Shown here piece by piece: positions 6,145-13,792 of a stretch of 64,000 nucleotides of DNA. Origin of the DNA: Shigella phage TB004. The position numbers and the translations under genes are program-made. A model generated the notes under the pieces. That model was not told where the DNA came from. It was given only the letters and a program-made list of their open reading frames with translations, and searched no databases. Numbering within the stretch: the stretch's first letter is position 1; every line of letters begins with the position of its first letter. The stretch lies in the sequence record MW822011, one strand, 5' to 3'.

Positions 6145-6971
<827 letters not shown>

Positions 6972-6990
6972 AATAACATTGGCGGAAAAT

Positions 6991-7341
6991 ATGAATTTTA
7001 ATTATTACCCTATTCTATTAGAAAAAGACGCGAAACAACCAAAATGGCAGGGTCCTCAGTTTATTAAAGGCGTCTATCAATTAGTAGTTCCCAAAGATAA
7101 GATTTATAGCAGCAGTTATTGCACTGAATCCGCTTGCAGTATTTTCGGTAATAGTTCTCCGTATTGGAATTTTGATATAAAGCTGGATAGAAATATCGAT
7201 ATTTGGTTGAAAGCTATGGATATTGGCAATATCACGTTTGATGAGAATAATTACCATATTATTGGTCGCTTTTCCAAGCGTGGTAAAGAATTGTATTTTA
7301 CGCCTGAAATTGAAAGAAAATTTGATGCTAAACCGTATTGA
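6991..7341 (+). CDS. Hypothetical protein (116 aa) on an insertion at the frd/td junction
   Basis: ORF from ATG at 6991 (track start 6979 is a TTG); lies in a ~418-bp segment that separates the frd stop from the td start. Confidence 0.55.
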   Translation: MNFNYYPILLEKDAKQPKWQGPQFIKGVYQLVVPKDKIYSSSYCTESACSIFGNSSPYWNFDIKLDRNIDIWLKAMDIGNITFDENNYHIIGRFSKRGKELYFTPEIERKFDAKPY

Positions 7342-7385
7342 TTATTAGCTTCATAAAATGTATTATAATTTATATAAGGTACTAA

Positions 7386-7934
7386 ATGAAACAATACCAA
7401 GATTTAATTAAAGACATTTTTGAAAATGGCTATGAAACTGATGACCGAACAGGCACAGGAACAATTGCTTTGTTCGGTACTAAATTACGCTGGGATTTAA
7501 CTAAAGGTTTTCCTGCAGTAACGACTAAGAAGCTCGCCTGGAAAGCTTGCATTGCTGAGCTAATATGGTTTTTATCGGGAAGTACTAACGTAAATGATTT
7601 ACGTCAACGTACTCATGGATCTTTAATTGCAGGAAAAACAATTTGGGATGAAAACTACGAAAACCAGGCCAAAGACTTAGGTTATCATAGCGGTGAACTT
7701 GGTCCAATTTACGGAAAACAGTGGCGTGATTTTGGTGGTGTAGATCAAATTGTAGAAGTTGTTAATCGTATTAAAACATTTCCCAATGATAGACGTCAAA
7801 TTGTGTCGGCATGGAATCCAGCTGAACTCAAGCAGATGGCATTACCGCCTTGTCATATGTTCTATCAGTTTAATGTGCGTAATGGTCATCTTGATTTACA
7901 ATGGTACCAGAGAAGTGTTGATGTTTTCTTAGGT
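7386..7934 (+). CDS. td: Thymidylate synthase, exon 1
   Basis: MKQYQDLIKDIFENGYETDDRTGTGT...QRSVDVFLG; coding continuity breaks at the position of the T4 td intron. Confidence 0.95.
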
Positions 7935-8950
7935 TAATTTAGGCCTAGGTATAAGGTGACTTATACTTGTAATCTATCTAAACGGGGGACCTCTCTAGTA
8001 GACAATCCCGTGCTAAATTGTAGGACTACCCTTTAATAAATACTTCTATATAAAAAGAGGTGTTTATGAAAAGCGGAATTTATCAGATTAAAAACACTTT
8101 AAACGGTAAAGTGTATGTTGGAAGTGCTAAAGATTTTGAGAAAAGATGGAAGAGACATTTTAAAGACCTTGAAAACGGTGTTCACTCTTCTATAAAATTT
8201 CAAAGGTCTTTTAATAAACATGGTAATGTTTTTGAATGCTCTGTACTGGAAGAAATTCCATATGAGAAAGATTTGATTATTGAACGAGAAAATTTTTGGA
8301 TTAAAGAGCTAAATTCTAAAATTAATGGATATAATATTGCTGATGCGTCTTTTGGCGATGTGCTTTCAAATCATCCATTAAAAGAAGAAATTGCTAAGAA
8401 ACGAGCTGAAACTGTTAAAGCTAAGATGCTTAAACTTGGTCCTGATGGTCGGAAAGCTCTTTATGGTAAACACGGAAGTAAAAATGGCCGATGGAATCCA
8501 GAAAACCATAAGTTTTGTAAATGCGGTGTTCGCATACCGTCTTCGGCCGATACTTGTGGAAAGTGCCGAAAACGTTCAGGTGAAAATAACCCGTTCTTTA
8601 ATCACAAACATTCAGAAAAAACTAAAACTAAGCTATCTGAAAAGATGAAAGGCAAAAAGCCAGCTAACATCAAAAAGATTTCATGCGATGGGATTATTTT
8701 TGAATGTGCAGCCGATGCGGCTAGACATTTTGAAATTTCATCAGGATTAGTTACTTACCGTGTAAAATCTGATAAGTGGAATTGGTTCTACATAAATGCC
8801 TAACGACTATCCCTTTAGGGAGTAGGGTCAAGTGACTCGAAACGATAGACAACTTGCTTTAACAAGTTGGAGATATAGTCTGCTCTGCATGGTGACATGC
8901 AGCTGGATATAATTCCGGGATAAGATTAACGACCTTATCTGAACATAATG
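7935..8950 (+). mobile_element. Group I self-splicing intron in td (1016 nt) carrying the I-TevI ORF
   Basis: 5' end TAATTTAGGCCTAGGTATAAGGTGACTTATACTTGTAATCTATCTAAACGGGG..., 3' end ...GATAAGATTAACGACCTTATCTGAACATAATG, then exon 2 in frame; length equals the T4 td intron. Confidence 0.9.
8066..8803 (+). CDS. I-TevI: Intron-encoded GIY-YIG homing endonuclease I-TevI
   Basis: 245 codons from ATG at 8066; [35 protein letters not shown]...WNWFYINA; AAGAGG SD upstream. Confidence 0.95.
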   Translation: MKSGIYQIKNTLNGKVYVGSAKDFEKRWKRHFKDLENGVHSSIKFQRSFNKHGNVFECSVLEEIPYEKDLIIERENFWIKELNSKINGYNIADASFGDVLSNHPLKEEIAKKRAETVKAKMLKLGPDGRKALYGKHGSKNGRWNPENHKFCKCGVRIPSSADTCGKCRKRSGENNPFFNHKHSEKTKTKLSEKMKGKKPANIKKISCDGIIFECAADAARHFEISSGLVTYRVKSDKWNWFYINA

Positions 8951-9262
8951 CTACCGTTCAACATTGCATCATATGCTGCGTTAGTTCATATTGTAGCTAA
9001 GATGTGTAATCTTATTCCGGGAGATTTGATATTTTCTGGCGGTAATACTCATATCTATATGAATCACGTAGAACAATGTAAAGAAATTTTACGTCGTGAA
9101 CCTAAAGAGCTTTGTGAACTTGTAATAGGCGGATTACCTTATAAATTCCGCTATCTTTCTACTAAAGAACAATTGGAATACATTCTTAAACTCAGGCCTA
9201 AAGATTTCGTTCTTAAAGGTTACGAATCACACCCTTCTATTAAAGGAAAAATGGCGGTGTAA
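8951..9262 (+). CDS. td: Thymidylate synthase, exon 2
   Basis: LPFNIASYAALVHIVAKMCNLIPGDLIFSGGNTHIYMNHVEQCKEILRREP...KGKMAV, in frame with exon 1 once the intron is removed. Confidence 0.93.
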   Translation, partial: LPFNIASYAALVHIVAKMCNLIPGDLIFSGGNTHIYMNHVEQCKEILRREPKELCELVIGGLPYKFRYLSTKEQLEYILKLRPKDFVLKGYESHPSIKGKMAV

Positions 9263-9285
9263 TTAATTATTAATTGTGAGGATAT

Positions 9286-9531
9286 ATGATTTTACGATTT
9301 AAAGATACTTCTGGTGTAGTTCTTTTTACACTTCCTAATCCAAGCGAGTTAGAAGTTCCAGGACCAGAACAGCCTATTGTCATTTATGGCAAAAAATATT
9401 ATACTCATAAAATGACTCGTGAGTATTTTGATAATAAAATTTCTACAGTTAAAACTTCTTCAGATTGTTATTATGATATTACTGTTTTAACGGAAAAACA
9501 ATATGACGAATGTAGAACTTTAGCAGTATAA
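9286..9531 (+). CDS. Hypothetical protein (81 aa)
   Basis: ORF with GTGAGGAT SD; its 3' end overlaps the convergent GIY-YIG gene by 12 nt. Confidence 0.55.
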
Positions 9532-10251
9532 ATATGATTCCCAACAATCTAGAGCACATCTTTTAGATATAAGTTTTCTGCTTATTCCAGTTTGACGCAC
9601 AGCTTCTGCTATTGTTGGATATTCTACCCCATCTATACTTACTCTTAGATGGGGTTTCTTTTTACCTCTTTGTGAGTCAGAAATTCGTTTTCTAACTTCA
9701 TTGGTATGTGTCTGTCCATAATATGGATTATTGATGCCTTTCATATTAAGTGCAGCGTTTCTTTCTTGGAACTTTTTGCTTATTTCTATAGCACGATCTA
9801 ACCCATAGTGTTCTTCTATAGTTTTACCTTTGATATCTTTAGGTCTACCATGTTTTTGCTTAAGTTCTTCTGGTGATAATTTTGAATTATTATTTTTAAT
9901 TGCATTTGAAATTTTATTAAGGATTTCTTGCTTTCTTGGGTGATGAGATAAGGTATCCCCAAACGATGCGTCTGCTATATTATACCCATTTTCCTTTGAG
10001 TCATATTCATGTATCCAATAATTTTCACGTTCAATAATGATAGATTTTTCGTATGGAAGTTCTTCTATGATTTTACATACGAAAGCATCTTTCCCATGCT
10101 TATTATAAGAACGCTGCAGCTTTATTGAATGATGATTTCCATTATCTAAATCTTTAAAGTGTCGTTTCCATCGTTCTTCAAAATTAATTGCACTTCCTAT
10201 ATAGTGCTTATTGGTTTTAGTGTTTATAATAGCATATATTCCAGATTTCAT
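9520..10251 (-). CDS. Free-standing GIY-YIG homing-endonuclease-like protein (243 aa), antisense to the flanking early genes
   Basis: N-terminal ~100 aa is close to the I-TevI catalytic domain ([35 protein letters not shown]...[13 protein letters not shown]); basic C-terminal half; AGGAGA SD and a late promoter upstream. Confidence 0.85.
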
Positions 10252-10273
10252 TATATTCTCCTATATAAAATTA

Positions 10274-10281
10274 TATTTATA
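10274..10281 (-). promoter_or_regulatory. T4-type late promoter (TATAAATA) for the antisense GIY-YIG gene
   Basis: Minus-strand ...CCCCATATAAATATAATTTTATATAGGAGAATATA-ATG. Confidence 0.6.
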
Positions 10282-10306
10282 TGGGGTAACTTACTACAGA
10301 GGACTT

Positions 10307-12571
10307 ATGCAATTAATTAATGTTATCAAAAGTAGTGGTGTTTCTCAGAGCTTTGACCCGCAAAAAATTATTAAAGTTTTATCTTGGGCAGCTGAAGGAA
10401 CATCTGTAGATCCTTATGAATTATATGAAAATATTAAATCATATCTCCGTGATGGAATGACCACTGATGACATTCAAACCATTGTAATTAAGGCTGCTGC
10501 GAATTCTATTTCAGTTGAAGAGCCTGATTATCAATATGTAGCTGCACGCTGTTTAATGTTCGCTCTTCGTAAGCATGTTTATGGGCAATATGAACCACGT
10601 TCATTTATTGATCATATTTCTTACTGTGTAAATGAAGGTAAATATGACCCTGAACTGCTGTCAAAATATTCAGCAGAAGAAATTACATTTTTAGAATCAA
10701 AAATTAAGCACGAGCGGGATATGGAATTTACTTATTCCGGGGCGATGCAATTAAAAGAAAAATATCTCGTTAAAGATAAAACCACTGGTCAAATTTATGA
10801 AACTCCGCAGTTTGCATTTATGACTATTGGAATGGCATTGCATCAAGATGAACCTGTTGATAGACTAAAACACGTTATTCGTTTTTATGAAGCGGTATCT
10901 ACTCGACAAATTTCATTGCCAACTCCTATTATGGCTGGTTGCCGTACTCCGACTCGACAGTTTAGTTCATGCGTTGTTATTGAAGCAGGTGATTCATTAA
11001 AGTCTATCAATAAGGCTTCCGCTTCAATTGTTGAATATATCTCCAAACGCGCTGGAATTGGCATTAACGTTGGTATGATTCGTGCCGAAGGTTCTAAGAT
11101 TGGTACAGGTGAAGTACGCCATACTGGTGTTATTCCTTTTTGGAAACATTTTCAGACTGCTGTTAAATCATGCTCACAGGGTGGAATTCGTGGCGGCGCT
11201 GCTACTGCTTATTATCCTATTTGGCATTTGGAAGTTGAAAATCTTCTCGTTTTGAAAAATAACAAAGGCGTAGAAGAAAACCGTATCCGTCATATGGATT
11301 ATGGCGTCCAGCTGAATGATTTGATGATGGAACGTTTTGGAAAGAACGACTACATTACTTTGTTCAGTCCGCATGAAATGGGTGGCGAACTTTATTATTC
11401 TTATTTTAAAGACCAAGATCGTTTCCGTGAATTATACGAAGCCGCAGAAAAAGATCCTAATATTCGTAAAAAGCGTATTAAAGCACGTGAACTGTTTGAA
11501 TTACTCATGACTGAACGTTCAGGAACAGCAAGGATTTATGTGCAGTTCATTGATAATACGAATAACTATACTCCATTTATTCGTGAAAAGGCACCTATTC
11601 GTCAGAGTAACTTGTGCTGTGAAATTGCTATTCCAACAAATGATGTGAATAGTCCTGATGCTGAAATTGGATTGTGCACGTTATCTGCATTTGTGTTGGA
11701 TAACTTCGATTGGCAAGACCAAGATAAAATTAATGAATTAGCAGAAGTTCAAGTTCGTGCTCTTGATAATCTTTTGGATTACCAAGGATATCCAGTTCCT
11801 GAAGCAGAAAAAGCTAAAAAGCGTCGAAACCTTGGCGTAGGTGTTACTAACTATGCAGCTTGGCTGGCAAGTAACTTTGCTTCTTATGAAGATGCTAACG
11901 ATTTAACACATGAACTATTTGAGAGATTACAGTATGGACTCATTAAAGCATCCATTAAGCTCGCCAAAGAAAAAGGACCTTGCGAATATTATTCAGACAC
12001 TCGTTGGTCTCGAGGCGAATTACCTATCGACTGGTACAATAAAAAGATTGACCAAATCGCAGCTCCAAAATACGTTTGTGACTGGTCGTCGCTGCGGGAA
12101 GACCTTAAGCTCTTTGGCATCCGTAATAGCACATTATCAGCACTTATGCCATGTGAGTCATCTTCCCAAGTTTCTAACAGTACAAACGGTATCGAGCCTC
12201 CACGTGGACCAGTCTCGGTTAAAGAATCAAAAGAGGGTTCCTTTAATCAAGTCGTGCCCAATATTGAACATAACATAGACCTATATGATTATACATGGAA
12301 ATTAGCTAAGAAAGGTAATAAACCTTATCTTACGCAAGTAGCTATTATGCTGAAATGGGTATGTCAATCAGCTTCAGCGAATACATATTATGACCCGCAG
12401 ATTTTTCCAAAAGGAAAGGTTCCAATGTCAATAATGATTGATGACCTTTTGTATTTTTGGTATTTTGGCGGAAAAAATTTCTATTATCATAATACCCGCG
12501 ACGGTTCTGGTACTGATGATTATGAAATAGAAACTCCAAAAGCTGAAGATTGTTCATCCTGTAAATTATGA
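10307..12571 (+). CDS. nrdA: Aerobic ribonucleoside-diphosphate reductase, large (alpha) subunit
   Basis: 754 codons from ATG at 10307; MQLINVIKSSGVSQSFDPQKIIKVLSWAAEG...; track ORF starts upstream at 10211. Confidence 0.95.
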   Translation: MQLINVIKSSGVSQSFDPQKIIKVLSWAAEGTSVDPYELYENIKSYLRDGMTTDDIQTIVIKAAANSISVEEPDYQYVAARCLMFALRKHVYGQYEPRSFIDHISYCVNEGKYDPELLSKYSAEEITFLESKIKHERDMEFTYSGAMQLKEKYLVKDKTTGQIYETPQFAFMTIGMALHQDEPVDRLKHVIRFYEAVSTRQISLPTPIMAGCRTPTRQFSSCVVIEAGDSLKSINKASASIVEYISKRAGIGINVGMIRAEGSKIGTGEVRHTGVIPFWKHFQTAVKSCSQGGIRGGAATAYYPIWHLEVENLLVLKNNKGVEENRIRHMDYGVQLNDLMMERFGKNDYITLFSPHEMGGELYYSYFKDQDRFRELYEAAEKDPNIRKKRIKARELFELLMTERSGTARIYVQFIDNTNNYTPFIREKAPIRQSNLCCEIAIPTNDVNSPDAEIGLCTLSAFVLDNFDWQDQDKINELAEVQVRALDNLLDYQGYPVPEAEKAKKRRNLGVGVTNYAAWLASNFASYEDANDLTHELFERLQYGLIKASIKLAKEKGPCEYYSDTRWSRGELPIDWYNKKIDQIAAPKYVCDWSSLREDLKLFGIRNSTLSALMPCESSSQVSNSTNGIEPPRGPVSVKESKEGSFNQVVPNIEHNIDLYDYTWKLAKKGNKPYLTQVAIMLKWVCQSASANTYYDPQIFPKGKVPMSIMIDDLLYFWYFGGKNFYYHNTRDGSGTDDYEIETPKAEDCSSCKL

Positions 12572-12622
12572 TATAATTTGACTCACGGACGAGTCACTAT
12601 CTATTAACTAAGCGGAAAATTT

Positions 12623-13792
12623 ATGAGCACAGTTTTTAATACAAATCCAGTTGATGTTTTAAAAGAACCTATGTTCTTCGGTTCAGGTCTTGGTATTGCG
12701 CGTTATGATATTCAACGGCATAGAGTATTTGAAGAACTTATTGAGAAATCTTTATCATTTTTCTGGCGTCCTGAAGAAGTAAACTTAATGATGGATGCTG
12801 CACAATTTAACAAGCTTCCTCAATATCAGCAAGATATTTTTACTAATAACCTGAAGTATCAATCACTTTTGGATAGCATTCAGGGTCGTGCACCGTCTGC
12901 TGTACTTATGTCATTAATTTCAGACCCAAGCCTTGATACATGGGTTGCTACATGGACTTTTAGTGAAACTATTCACAGTCGTTCATATACTCATATCATG
13001 CGAAATCTTTATACTGATCCATCAAAGGTATTTGATGAGATTGTATTAGATAAAGCTATCATGAAACGCGCTGAATCTATTGGTCGTTATTATGATGACG
13101 TTCTAGTTAAGACTCGTGAATATCAGAATGCGGTTGAAGATTATGAAGGAATTTTATCAGAAGGATTTCGTAAAGAAGAGTTAGGCAAAGTTGTTGAATG
13201 TACTAAACGAGCACTAATGAAATCTCTTTACCTCTGCCTGCATGTAATCAACGCATTGGAAGCTATTCGTTTTTATGTATCTTTCGCATGTACCTTTAAC
13301 TTCCATAAGAACATGGAAATCATGGAAGGTAATGCCAAGATTATGAAGTTCATTGCACGTGATGAGCAGCTTCACCTTAAAGGCACCCAATATATTATTC
13401 GTCAACTTCAATCCGGTACTGATGGCGATGAATGGGTTAAAATTGCTCAAGAGTGTGAACAAGAAGCAGTTGATATTTTCATGGAAGTTAACCGCCAAGA
13501 AAAAGATTGGGCAGTTCATTTATTTAAAGATGGCGATGTTCCTGGATTAAATACAAATAGTATGTGGAGTTTTATTGATTACTTAACTGTATCTCGTATG
13601 AAACAGTGTGGTCTTCCATGCCCAATTACCGATGCTCCGGTTAAACATCCATATCCTTGGATTCGTGAATATCTTAATTCTGATAATGTTCAATCCGCGC
13701 CACAAGAAGTAGAACTGTCATCTTACCTTGTTGCACAGATTGATAATGATGTTGATGATAAAGTTATGATGAGTTTTAAAAAATATTTTTAA
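12623..13792 (+). CDS. nrdB: Aerobic ribonucleoside-diphosphate reductase, small (beta) subunit; uninterrupted (no intron)
   Basis: 389-aa continuous ORF, MSTVFNTNPVDVLKEPMFFGSGLGIARYDIQ...; only a 51-bp gap separates it from nrdA. Confidence 0.93.
   Translation: MSTVFNTNPVDVLKEPMFFGSGLGIARYDIQRHRVFEELIEKSLSFFWRPEEVNLMMDAAQFNKLPQYQQDIFTNNLKYQSLLDSIQGRAPSAVLMSLISDPSLDTWVATWTFSETIHSRSYTHIMRNLYTDPSKVFDEIVLDKAIMKRAESIGRYYDDVLVKTREYQNAVEDYEGILSEGFRKEELGKVVECTKRALMKSLYLCLHVINALEAIRFYVSFACTFNFHKNMEIMEGNAKIMKFIARDEQLHLKGTQYIIRQLQSGTDGDEWVKIAQECEQEAVDIFMEVNRQEKDWAVHLFKDGDVPGLNTNSMWSFIDYLTVSRMKQCGLPCPITDAPVKHPYPWIREYLNSDNVQSAPQEVELSSYLVAQIDNDVDDKVMMSFKKYF

Follow-up and report, generated by a model that had tools for sequence, protein, structure and literature searches.

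A probable free-standing homing endonuclease gene related to I-TevI, on the antisense strand between td and nrdA in T4-like phages

Introduction

What is a relative of the intron-encoded endonuclease I-TevI doing as a free-standing gene, antisense to all its neighbours, between td and nrdA of a T4-like phage? The question arises in a stretch of 64,000 nucleotides from Shigella phage TB004 (sequence record MW822011), referred to at its full length as the window, whose open reading frame (ORF) 9520-10251 on the minus strand (243 amino acids; ATG 10249-10251, stop 9520-9522) encodes a GIY-YIG endonuclease paralogous to I-TevI. We call this ORF HEG, for homing endonuclease gene, and denote as HEG+ and HEG- the alleles with and without the cassette that contains it; labels of the form L0xx designate compared sequences (L002, 236Ecol005PP; L005, KP179; L023, Ozark; L024, N2). 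The comparisons described here suggest that HEG, a free-standing I-TevI relative of the GIY-YIG type, is probably an active homing endonuclease gene expressed late in infection, and that it amounts to a new seg-like gene.

Among GIY-YIG homing endonucleases, I-TevI has been studied most thoroughly, and it also serves as a reagent for genome editing. Our literature search returned no paper characterising a free-standing GIY-YIG gene between td and nrdA. Orthologues at this locus are deposited in at least 26 phage records under the labels 'homing endonuclease' or 'GIY-YIG nuclease family protein', and for none of them did we find a characterising paper; an already characterised orthologue at this locus was what an initial annotation of the window, made from the sequence alone, had named as speaking against its reading. 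An 'I-TevI-like' gene is mentioned in passing in Acinetobacter phages 133 and Ac42 (PMC4177764).

Results

HEG encodes a predicted nuclease with I-TevI-like architecture and no zinc finger

The window is a Tequatrovirus (T4-like) genome segment, and its positions 9000-10500 match Escherichia phage sutha at 99.2%. The plus-strand order is frd, a 120-amino-acid ORF, td exon 1, I-TevI, td exon 2, an nrdA.2 homologue, nrdA and nrdB; within the run from frd to nrdB, HEG is the single minus-strand gene, and its antisense position, already apparent in the initial annotation, follows from the ORF coordinates. HEG stands outside any intron, between nrdA.2 and nrdA, where its flanks join the coding DNA of HEG-less phages directly.

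Pairwise alignment of the HEG protein with the resident I-TevI, which had been suggested as a check, gave 45% identity over 242 amino acids (BLASTP, E 3e-70). The resemblance that had been noticed in the first ~100 residues is real, with 69% identity over residues 1-98, but it is not limited to them: the alignment spans 242 amino acids, with 42% identity over residues 99-122, 19% over 123-170 and 30% over 171-243, and what is missing is the zinc finger. In Pfam, the protein matches GIY-YIG (PF01541) at E 1e-15, above the gathering score, which places the ORF far beyond chance, and NUMOD3 at 2e-6, above the cut-off, while its match to I-TevI_DNA-bd (2e-4, 21.4 bits) falls under the 27-bit gathering cut-off of that family. 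The HEG protein is unmatched in Pfam by the zinc finger family I-TevI_ZnF (PF22635), which the resident I-TevI matches at 1.8e-17; its only cysteines are at positions 59, 232, 236 and 243, with none within 60-231.

Structural comparisons agree with this layout. Residues 1-98 match the I-TevI catalytic domain in the Protein Data Bank (PDB) by sequence (1MK0, 1LN0; E 4e-40), and an AlphaFold model of the protein (mean predicted local distance difference test score 88) superposes on 1MK0 with a template modelling score of 0.98 and a root-mean-square deviation of 0.6 A. The catalytic residues, whose loss on careful alignment had been named as a possible outcome, are all present: Y6, Y17, R27, H31, H40, E76 and N91 align to those of I-TevI and are invariant in a 44-sequence family alignment. 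The catalytic domain (9958-10251, minus strand) is followed by a cysteine-free linker, residues 99-170 (9742-9957), whose first part is the I-TevI-like 42% segment and in which predicted helices 127-134 and 145-168 fill the position of the I-TevI zinc finger in the model. Residues 171-243 (9523-9741) hold the NUMOD3 minor-groove helix and a C-terminal helix-turn-helix, as judged from Pfam and from the I-TevI DNA-binding domain 1I3J, which residues 156-239 match at E 2.8e-7 by sequence and 4e-4 by fold. Both sequence and fold assign the HEG protein to the GIY-YIG superfamily and to the I-TevI modular family, and it is predicted to be an intact nuclease with the I-TevI architecture minus the zinc finger. 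Since neither the zinc finger nor intron residence is shared, HEG is a relative and not an orthologue of I-TevI.

A compact cassette replaces nrdA.1

In T4, the td-nrdA interval contains only the small ORFs nrdA.2 and nrdA.1, as the initial annotation had stated. The window aligns with T4 and with HEG-less 236Ecol005PP as far as 9510 and again from 10299, which is 8 nt ahead of the nrdA ATG; between these points lies a mobile cassette of 788 bp (9511-10298, minus strand) that comprises the HEG ORF, ~9 nt past its stop and 47 nt upstream with the ribosome-binding and promoter signals. The cassette takes the place of ~301 bp, namely the 3' end of nrdA.2 (its last codons) and all of nrdA.1 (DUF4326), the arrangement found here in T4 and in ~98% of tequatroviruses. 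It also supplies the final seven codons of the window's nrdA.2 homologue (CRTLAV*), and the convergent 3' ends of the two genes share the 12-nt overlap that had been described for the 81-codon ORF 9286-9531, at 9520-9531.

The same cassette occurs in Klebsiella phages of the genus Jiaodavirus, where it is shared from 9519 to ~10298. Its nrdA-side junction, between GGGGTAACTTACTACA and GAGGACTTATGCAA, is the same in both genera, as is the right-hand sequence GAGGACTTATG (10299-10309, plus strand), which holds the Shine-Dalgarno (SD) sequence and ATG of nrdA. On the left side, the Jiaodavirus cassette joins directly onto the final 7-9 nt of an intronless td. Of the DNA that is replaced, nrdA.1 alone has homology between the two genera; it has two well-conserved blocks and runs into the conserved start of nrdA.

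Two further features of the ends were observed. In the Escherichia phages the cassette ends form a 5-nt inverted repeat, TGTAG ... CTACA (9511-9515 and 10294-10298), and the left-end 8 nt, TGTAGAAC, differ from the HEG-less allele as well as from the Klebsiella cassette; they could be filler from another donor, or a chance match.

The cassette is patchily distributed and has moved recently between genera

HEG is present in 8 of the 538 tequatrovirus-type records that match the region (~1.5%), representing 7 distinct phages, sutha, CJY920, RPN226, ECO07P5, N2, LH2 and Ozark. Among 154 Klebsiella Jiaodavirus-type records, 18 (~12%) carry the same cassette at 87-93% DNA identity, likewise antisense between td and nrdA and at the nrdA-proximal junction, the HEG-less Jiaodaviruses having at this place a 68-amino-acid ORF and an nrdA.1 homologue. 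KP179 (L005 3214-3444) and PKO111 keep the cassette and have, in the 240-300 bp between the HEG promoter and nrdA, an unannotated 76-amino-acid ORF unrelated to nrdA.1. Separately, an 86%-identical partial copy on a 760-bp contig labelled Xanthomonas campestris (P0005) is most likely phage contamination of a bacterial assembly.

The divergence of the cassette differs sharply from that of its surroundings. Between the window and the Klebsiella phages, HEG is 90-92% identical, with a synonymous divergence (dS) of 0.30-0.43, whereas the adjacent nrdA is 70% identical with a dS of ~2.6, and the td 3' end is ~77% identical. The low dS of HEG relative to nrdA implies that the cassette was exchanged between the genera long after they had diverged, and these alignments are a clear indication of recent movement between the T4-like phages of E. 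coli and of Klebsiella. Within Jiaodavirus, two clearly distinct td 3' alleles accompany the cassette, each known also without it. In Tequatrovirus, it lies beside td with intron and I-TevI (window, sutha, LH2), td with an ORF-less intron (N2) and a divergent intronless td (Ozark), and the single-nucleotide polymorphism haplotypes of the flanks switch within ~40 nt to the left and ~60 nt to the right. Between HEG+ and HEG- phages of both genera, no HEG-specific substitution is found across td, the nrdA.2 sequence through 9510 and the initial 480 nt of nrdA, with the exception of the last 7 nt of td in HEG+ Jiaodaviruses, which differ from those of HEG-less relatives; at the I-TevI site, the intronless td of HEG+ Jiaodaviruses is identical to that of HEG-less relatives.

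HEG itself is conserved as a coding sequence. All 11 copies read are uninterrupted 243-codon ORFs, and the ratio of non-synonymous to synonymous substitution rates (dN/dS) is 0.05-0.16 (~0.1) against 10 other copies, values that indicate strong purifying selection and, by implication, a retained function. This pattern of mobility and selection is what would be expected as the footprint of an active homing endonuclease gene, short of proof.

Three candidate traces of co-transferred flanking DNA were rejected. An apparent co-conversion of the nrdA 5' region between genera proved to be a megablast extension through ordinary conservation, the nrdA 5' region of KpV477 being 98% identical to that of the HEG-less KP185. 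The foreign-looking td 3' patch of Nispero and PKO111, considered as a hitch-hiking tract, is a td allele common in HEG-less Klebsiella phages. HEG-linked haplotypes were not recovered either: the best matches to the 5' kilobase of the window's nrdA are HEG-less phages.

Ozark (L023 2146-3006) combines an nrdA.2-HEG-nrdA block at 98.7% identity with an intronless, strongly divergent td, which at the I-TevI homing site bears many synonymous changes, CAAAGAAGT standing for CAACGCTCA and GGATTGCCATTCAAC for GGTCTACCGTTTAAT. This td may be an I-TevI-resistant allele from another lineage, with its breakpoint at the start of nrdA.2.

HEG belongs to an old free-standing lineage tied to td

A database search returned 82 relatives at E < 1e-10. 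For the 26 family members whose context was read, ranging from 100% to 38% identity, the gene lies in every case in the td intron or beside the td 3' end. The intron-borne members are I-TevI of T4 and of the window, STP4-a, PspYZU05, Aes508, L021, L022, L028 and the second copy of L017. Antisense members between td and nrdA comprise the window, the further tequatroviruses sutha, RPN226, N2, LH2 and Ozark, five Klebsiella phages, L019 (75%), L017 (56%), L018 (54%), AbTZA1 (51%), Meroveus (47%), AB2I2 (45%) and L027, while L020 and L026 carry a same-strand member directly after td. The linkage to td holds in either orientation and includes contigs without a nearby nrdA; the metagenomic T4-like contig L017 has an intron I-TevI and a free-standing paralogue together.

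In a neighbour-joining tree, the enterobacterial free-standing proteins of 242-243 amino acids and the Acinetobacter-phage proteins fall outside the zinc-finger-bearing intron clade. A recent duplication of the resident I-TevI was rejected as the source of HEG: the two belong to separate clades, their catalytic-region DNA is only 68% identical with a longest exact run of 11 nt, and HEG is present in phages without I-TevI. HEG is part of a separate and old free-standing lineage.

A late promoter is conserved upstream of HEG

The late promoter and SD that had been attributed to HEG are both found. An exact T4-type late promoter box, TATAAATA, lies at 10274-10281 on the minus strand, 22 nt upstream of the ATG, and the SD AGGAGA at 10257-10262, 5 nt before the ATG, is kept in Escherichia and Klebsiella copies. 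A single box is weak evidence, since the AT-rich window contains 18 of them where 8.9 are expected by chance. We compared the upstream regions of 14 homologous cassettes, spanning 100% down to 45% protein identity, and TATAAATA recurs 22-28 nt from the start codon in 13 of them, down to 47% protein identity, while the adjacent bases diverge. This conservation lends strong comparative support to the prediction of a real T4-type late promoter.

Beyond the box, the cassette ends on its right with GTAGTAAGTTACCCCA (10282-10298, minus strand). The part nearest the promoter, AAGTTACCCCA, is kept even in a 76%-identical relative and could, speculatively, be an operator. We rejected an operator or homing-site mimic upstream of the promoter, HEG-less td-nrdA DNA containing no convincing counterpart (best match 16/24). 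Downstream of 9520, no terminator for the HEG transcript was found on the minus strand within nrdA.2.

Other expression signals were noted in and around the cassette. A second exact TATAAATA, on the plus strand at 9527-9534, lies within the 3' end of HEG (codons Y-L-Y on the other strand) and is present in every Escherichia and Klebsiella copy; late transcription from it would run antisense through HEG toward nrdA, or the box may reflect mere coding constraint. A weak sigma-70-like site, TTCAAA-17-TATAGT, is present on the plus strand within HEG (10177-10205). In HEG-less alleles, an extended -10-like TGATATAAT is located inside nrdA.1, ~55 nt upstream of nrdA (L002 3750-3785, and the equivalent in L008), and the 19-mer CATGGTGATATAATAGCTC around it does not differ between Tequatrovirus and Jiaodavirus, an indication that the cassette removes a promoter lying close to nrdA.

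Neighbouring genes and other mobile elements

Upstream of HEG, on the plus strand, lie frd (6390-6971), td exon 1 (from 7386), the resident, intron-encoded, zinc-finger-bearing I-TevI (8066-8803), td exon 2 (8951-9262) and the nrdA.2 homologue (DUF5496; 9286-9531; 81 amino acids against 87 in T4). The td exon 2 is flanked by two related GIY-YIG nucleases, I-TevI and HEG, as the initial annotation had it. Downstream, nrdA (10307-12571) and nrdB (12623-13792) follow on the same strand. The 120-amino-acid ORF between frd and td (6979-7341, plus strand) has a TTG start and no Pfam match; in T4 frd and td overlap, sutha has here a 68-amino-acid ORF, and Ozark and N2 have ORFs of 116-119 amino acids. 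Relative to T4, the window lacks mobE between nrdA and nrdB (12571-12623), and its nrdB is uninterrupted, without the I-TevIII intron, so that the mobile-element set of this nrd cluster differs from that of the T4 reference.

[quoted passage not shown] A td intron of ~248 nt without the I-TevI ORF is found in 236Ecol005PP (L002 2700-2949) and N2 (L024 2700-2949). An Rfam scan of 7300-10400 in the window gave no match, the ORF-interrupted td intron being likewise unmatched.

Discussion

A homing model for HEG and its likely target

Taken together, the polymorphism, the compact cassette, the flank haplotypes, the transfer between genera and the selection on the ORF all fit, and in our view support, a reading of HEG as a homing endonuclease gene; cleavage, target and timing are what we infer from them. 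Lying antisense to the early td-nrdA unit, with a promoter of the gp55 type, HEG would be silent on the early and middle rightward transcripts and made late only, from its own TATAAATA promoter. I-TevI gets the same late timing by a different route. The NUMOD3 helix and helix-turn-helix would bind a specific site in the td-nrdA interval of a co-infecting HEG-less phage, and the tethered GIY-YIG domain would cut both strands a fixed distance away, the motif probably being of the CNNNG type as for I-TevI. Recombinational repair off the HEG-carrying genome would then copy the cassette in, with replacement of nrdA.1, and the insertion would most likely delete or split the target, making the carrier immune.

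Where might this site be? If carriers are immune, immunity must come from the insertion itself, because td and the first 480 nt of nrdA are the same in HEG+ and HEG- phages; the site would therefore lie inside nrdA.1 or across the junction between nrdA.1 and the start of nrdA. We favour this placement tentatively, at slightly under an even chance if homing is granted. The initial annotation had proposed td or nrdA alleles of related phages as the target, and the comparisons point instead to the nrdA.1 segment or its junctions over td or nrdA coding sequence.

Several considerations weigh against these interpretations. Next to the homologue of Acinetobacter phage AB2I2, which is more distant, an nrdA.1-like gene is retained, and the family as a whole is linked to td, not to nrdA.1. 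The target is derived from a single line of reasoning, immunity by disruption; according to papers on SegF and SegG, some T4 seg enzymes reportedly cut their own genome weakly, so that carrier self-immunity need not be strict. At a frequency of ~1.5% in tequatroviruses, most alleles could be resistant. Finally, mosaic flanks are no proof of homing, since T4-like phages recombine very freely.

Could HEG cut td itself, at or near the I-TevI/I-BmoI homing site or at the td 3' end? This is the main rival with respect to the target, and we consider it unlikely. Such an enzyme would rival the intron enzyme or work alongside it, as in 'collaborative homing', and would stand for a free-living stage, either the source of the intron-borne I-TevI or an escape from it. 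It would account for the location of 26 out of 26 family members, down to 38% identity, in the td intron or abutting the td 3' end, and the C-terminal domain of HEG is homologous to the I-TevI DNA-binding domain; moreover, cleavage of related thymidylate synthase sites has been described for I-TevI and I-BmoI, a pair with comparable divergence (PMC12774661). However, the DNA-binding region is only 30% identical to that of I-TevI and the zinc finger is absent. In addition, the td of HEG+ Jiaodaviruses is intronless, has the same I-TevI site as HEG-less relatives and shows no HEG-specific change save in its last 7 nt, the tequatrovirus Ozark has HEG beside an intronless td, and the td stop region of the window is unchanged relative to HEG-less phages. 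That the antisense td-adjacent lineage is the free-living counterpart of I-TevI, recognising td itself, is an unlikely proposition. If it were true, the window would hold, for the textbook td/I-TevI system, both stages of a pathway that has been proposed, from a free-standing endonuclease by its target gene to an endonuclease in a protective intron, and the paralogues around td exon 2 would jointly mobilise the block from exon 2 to nrdA.2 across genera as a small 'HEG island'.

Two other explanations dispense with self-spread. HEG might have been domesticated, its main role being to regulate by binding DNA at specific sites or to attack the DNA of competing phages or of the host, which we regard as improbable. 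The strong purifying selection, the long-term conservation of position across genera and the conserved AAGTTACCCCA block abutting the promoter would suit such a role, and I-TevI is a known repressor, in fact an autorepressor (PMC2988022, PMC10448857). Against this, a patchy presence (1.5% and 12%) combined with recent transfer between genera marks a selfish element and not a gene that benefits its host, the catalytic residues are invariant without exception, and no operator-like copy of the target sequence was found. Alternatively, HEG might be an inactive relic, passively carried, with ordinary homologous recombination explaining its distribution; T4-like phages recombine at very high rates, and the mosaic flank haplotypes occur throughout the region and not just beside the cassette. 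A dN/dS of ~0.1, the lack of frameshifts and stops in the 11 copies read, the intact catalytic residues and the conserved promoter all speak against decay, and the crossing into a genus with 70%-identical flanks is hard to explain without a break-stimulated event, making this explanation very improbable. Homing thus remains the reading that we prefer.

Significance

For annotation the outcome is ordinary: one more free-standing homing endonuclease gene in a hyperplastic region of T4-like phages. What lifts it above routine is the nature of the gene, a zinc-finger-less I-TevI paralogue, the attachment of its whole family to td, and the recent transfer between genera. In 2010, the authors of a review on T4-related genomes had found 'no convincing evidence' that such elements move across genera (PMC2993671), against which this cassette is a clean example of a homing endonuclease gene that has recently crossed between T4-like phages of E. 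coli and Klebsiella. HEG is also a natural full-length paralogue of I-TevI whose nuclease domain is nearly identical, whose linker has the same length but no zinc finger, and whose DNA-binding domain has diverged; it hence lends itself to comparisons of how cleavage distance is set by the linker and of how target specificity changes. Since the whole family is linked to thymidylate synthase genes, either within the intron or immediately downstream, experiments on how the mobile td intron arose come within reach.

Comparison with known systems

The closest known system is I-TevI itself (PDB 1LN0, 1MK0, 1I3J), with which HEG shares full-length homology, the catalytic residues, a similar proximal linker, the NUMOD3 helix, the C-terminal helix-turn-helix, almost the same size (243 against 245 amino acids), a late promoter and physical linkage to td. 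By contrast, HEG is not in an intron, is antisense to td and falls in a separate clade, and it lacks the zinc finger, which is the distance determinant of I-TevI, with predicted helices in its place. Because its DNA-binding region is only 30% identical, its target probably differs from that of I-TevI.

I-BmoI, from the thyA intron of Bacillus mojavensis, is likewise an I-TevI-family GIY-YIG enzyme tied to a thymidylate synthase gene, but it is intron-encoded and bacterial, and its target is known. I-BmoI is not known to have an I-TevI-type zinc finger and uses NUMOD-type modules. The 'collaborative homing' of F-CphI and psbA offers another parallel, HEG being a free-standing gene directly downstream of a gene that has a group I intron in some relatives, and some carriers, such as N2, having an ORF-less td intron. 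Unlike in that system, intronless td alleles coexist unchanged with HEG, and F-CphI belongs to a different nuclease family.

In its genetic setting, HEG resembles T4 SegA-G, as a free-standing GIY-YIG gene between conserved T-even-type genes that is variably present among relatives, and segD is antisense, as is HEG. Its sequence, however, lies on the I-TevI branch and not with any named seg gene, and the td-nrdA interval is not among the listed T4 sites of homing endonuclease genes (PMC2988022). Like the seg genes, among them segF and segG with their 'intronless homing' and localized marker exclusion, HEG would be expected to spread by a double-strand break and co-conversion (reviewed in PMC2988022). 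A last parallel is MobE, the HNH enzyme encoded between nrdA and nrdB of T4, which is free-standing, patchily distributed and part of the same nucleotide-metabolism cluster, and which targets the neighbouring ribonucleotide reductase gene (PMC2790892); it differs in nuclease family and location, and its gene is on the sense strand, co-transcribed with nrdA, whereas HEG is antisense and would be read from a late promoter of its own.

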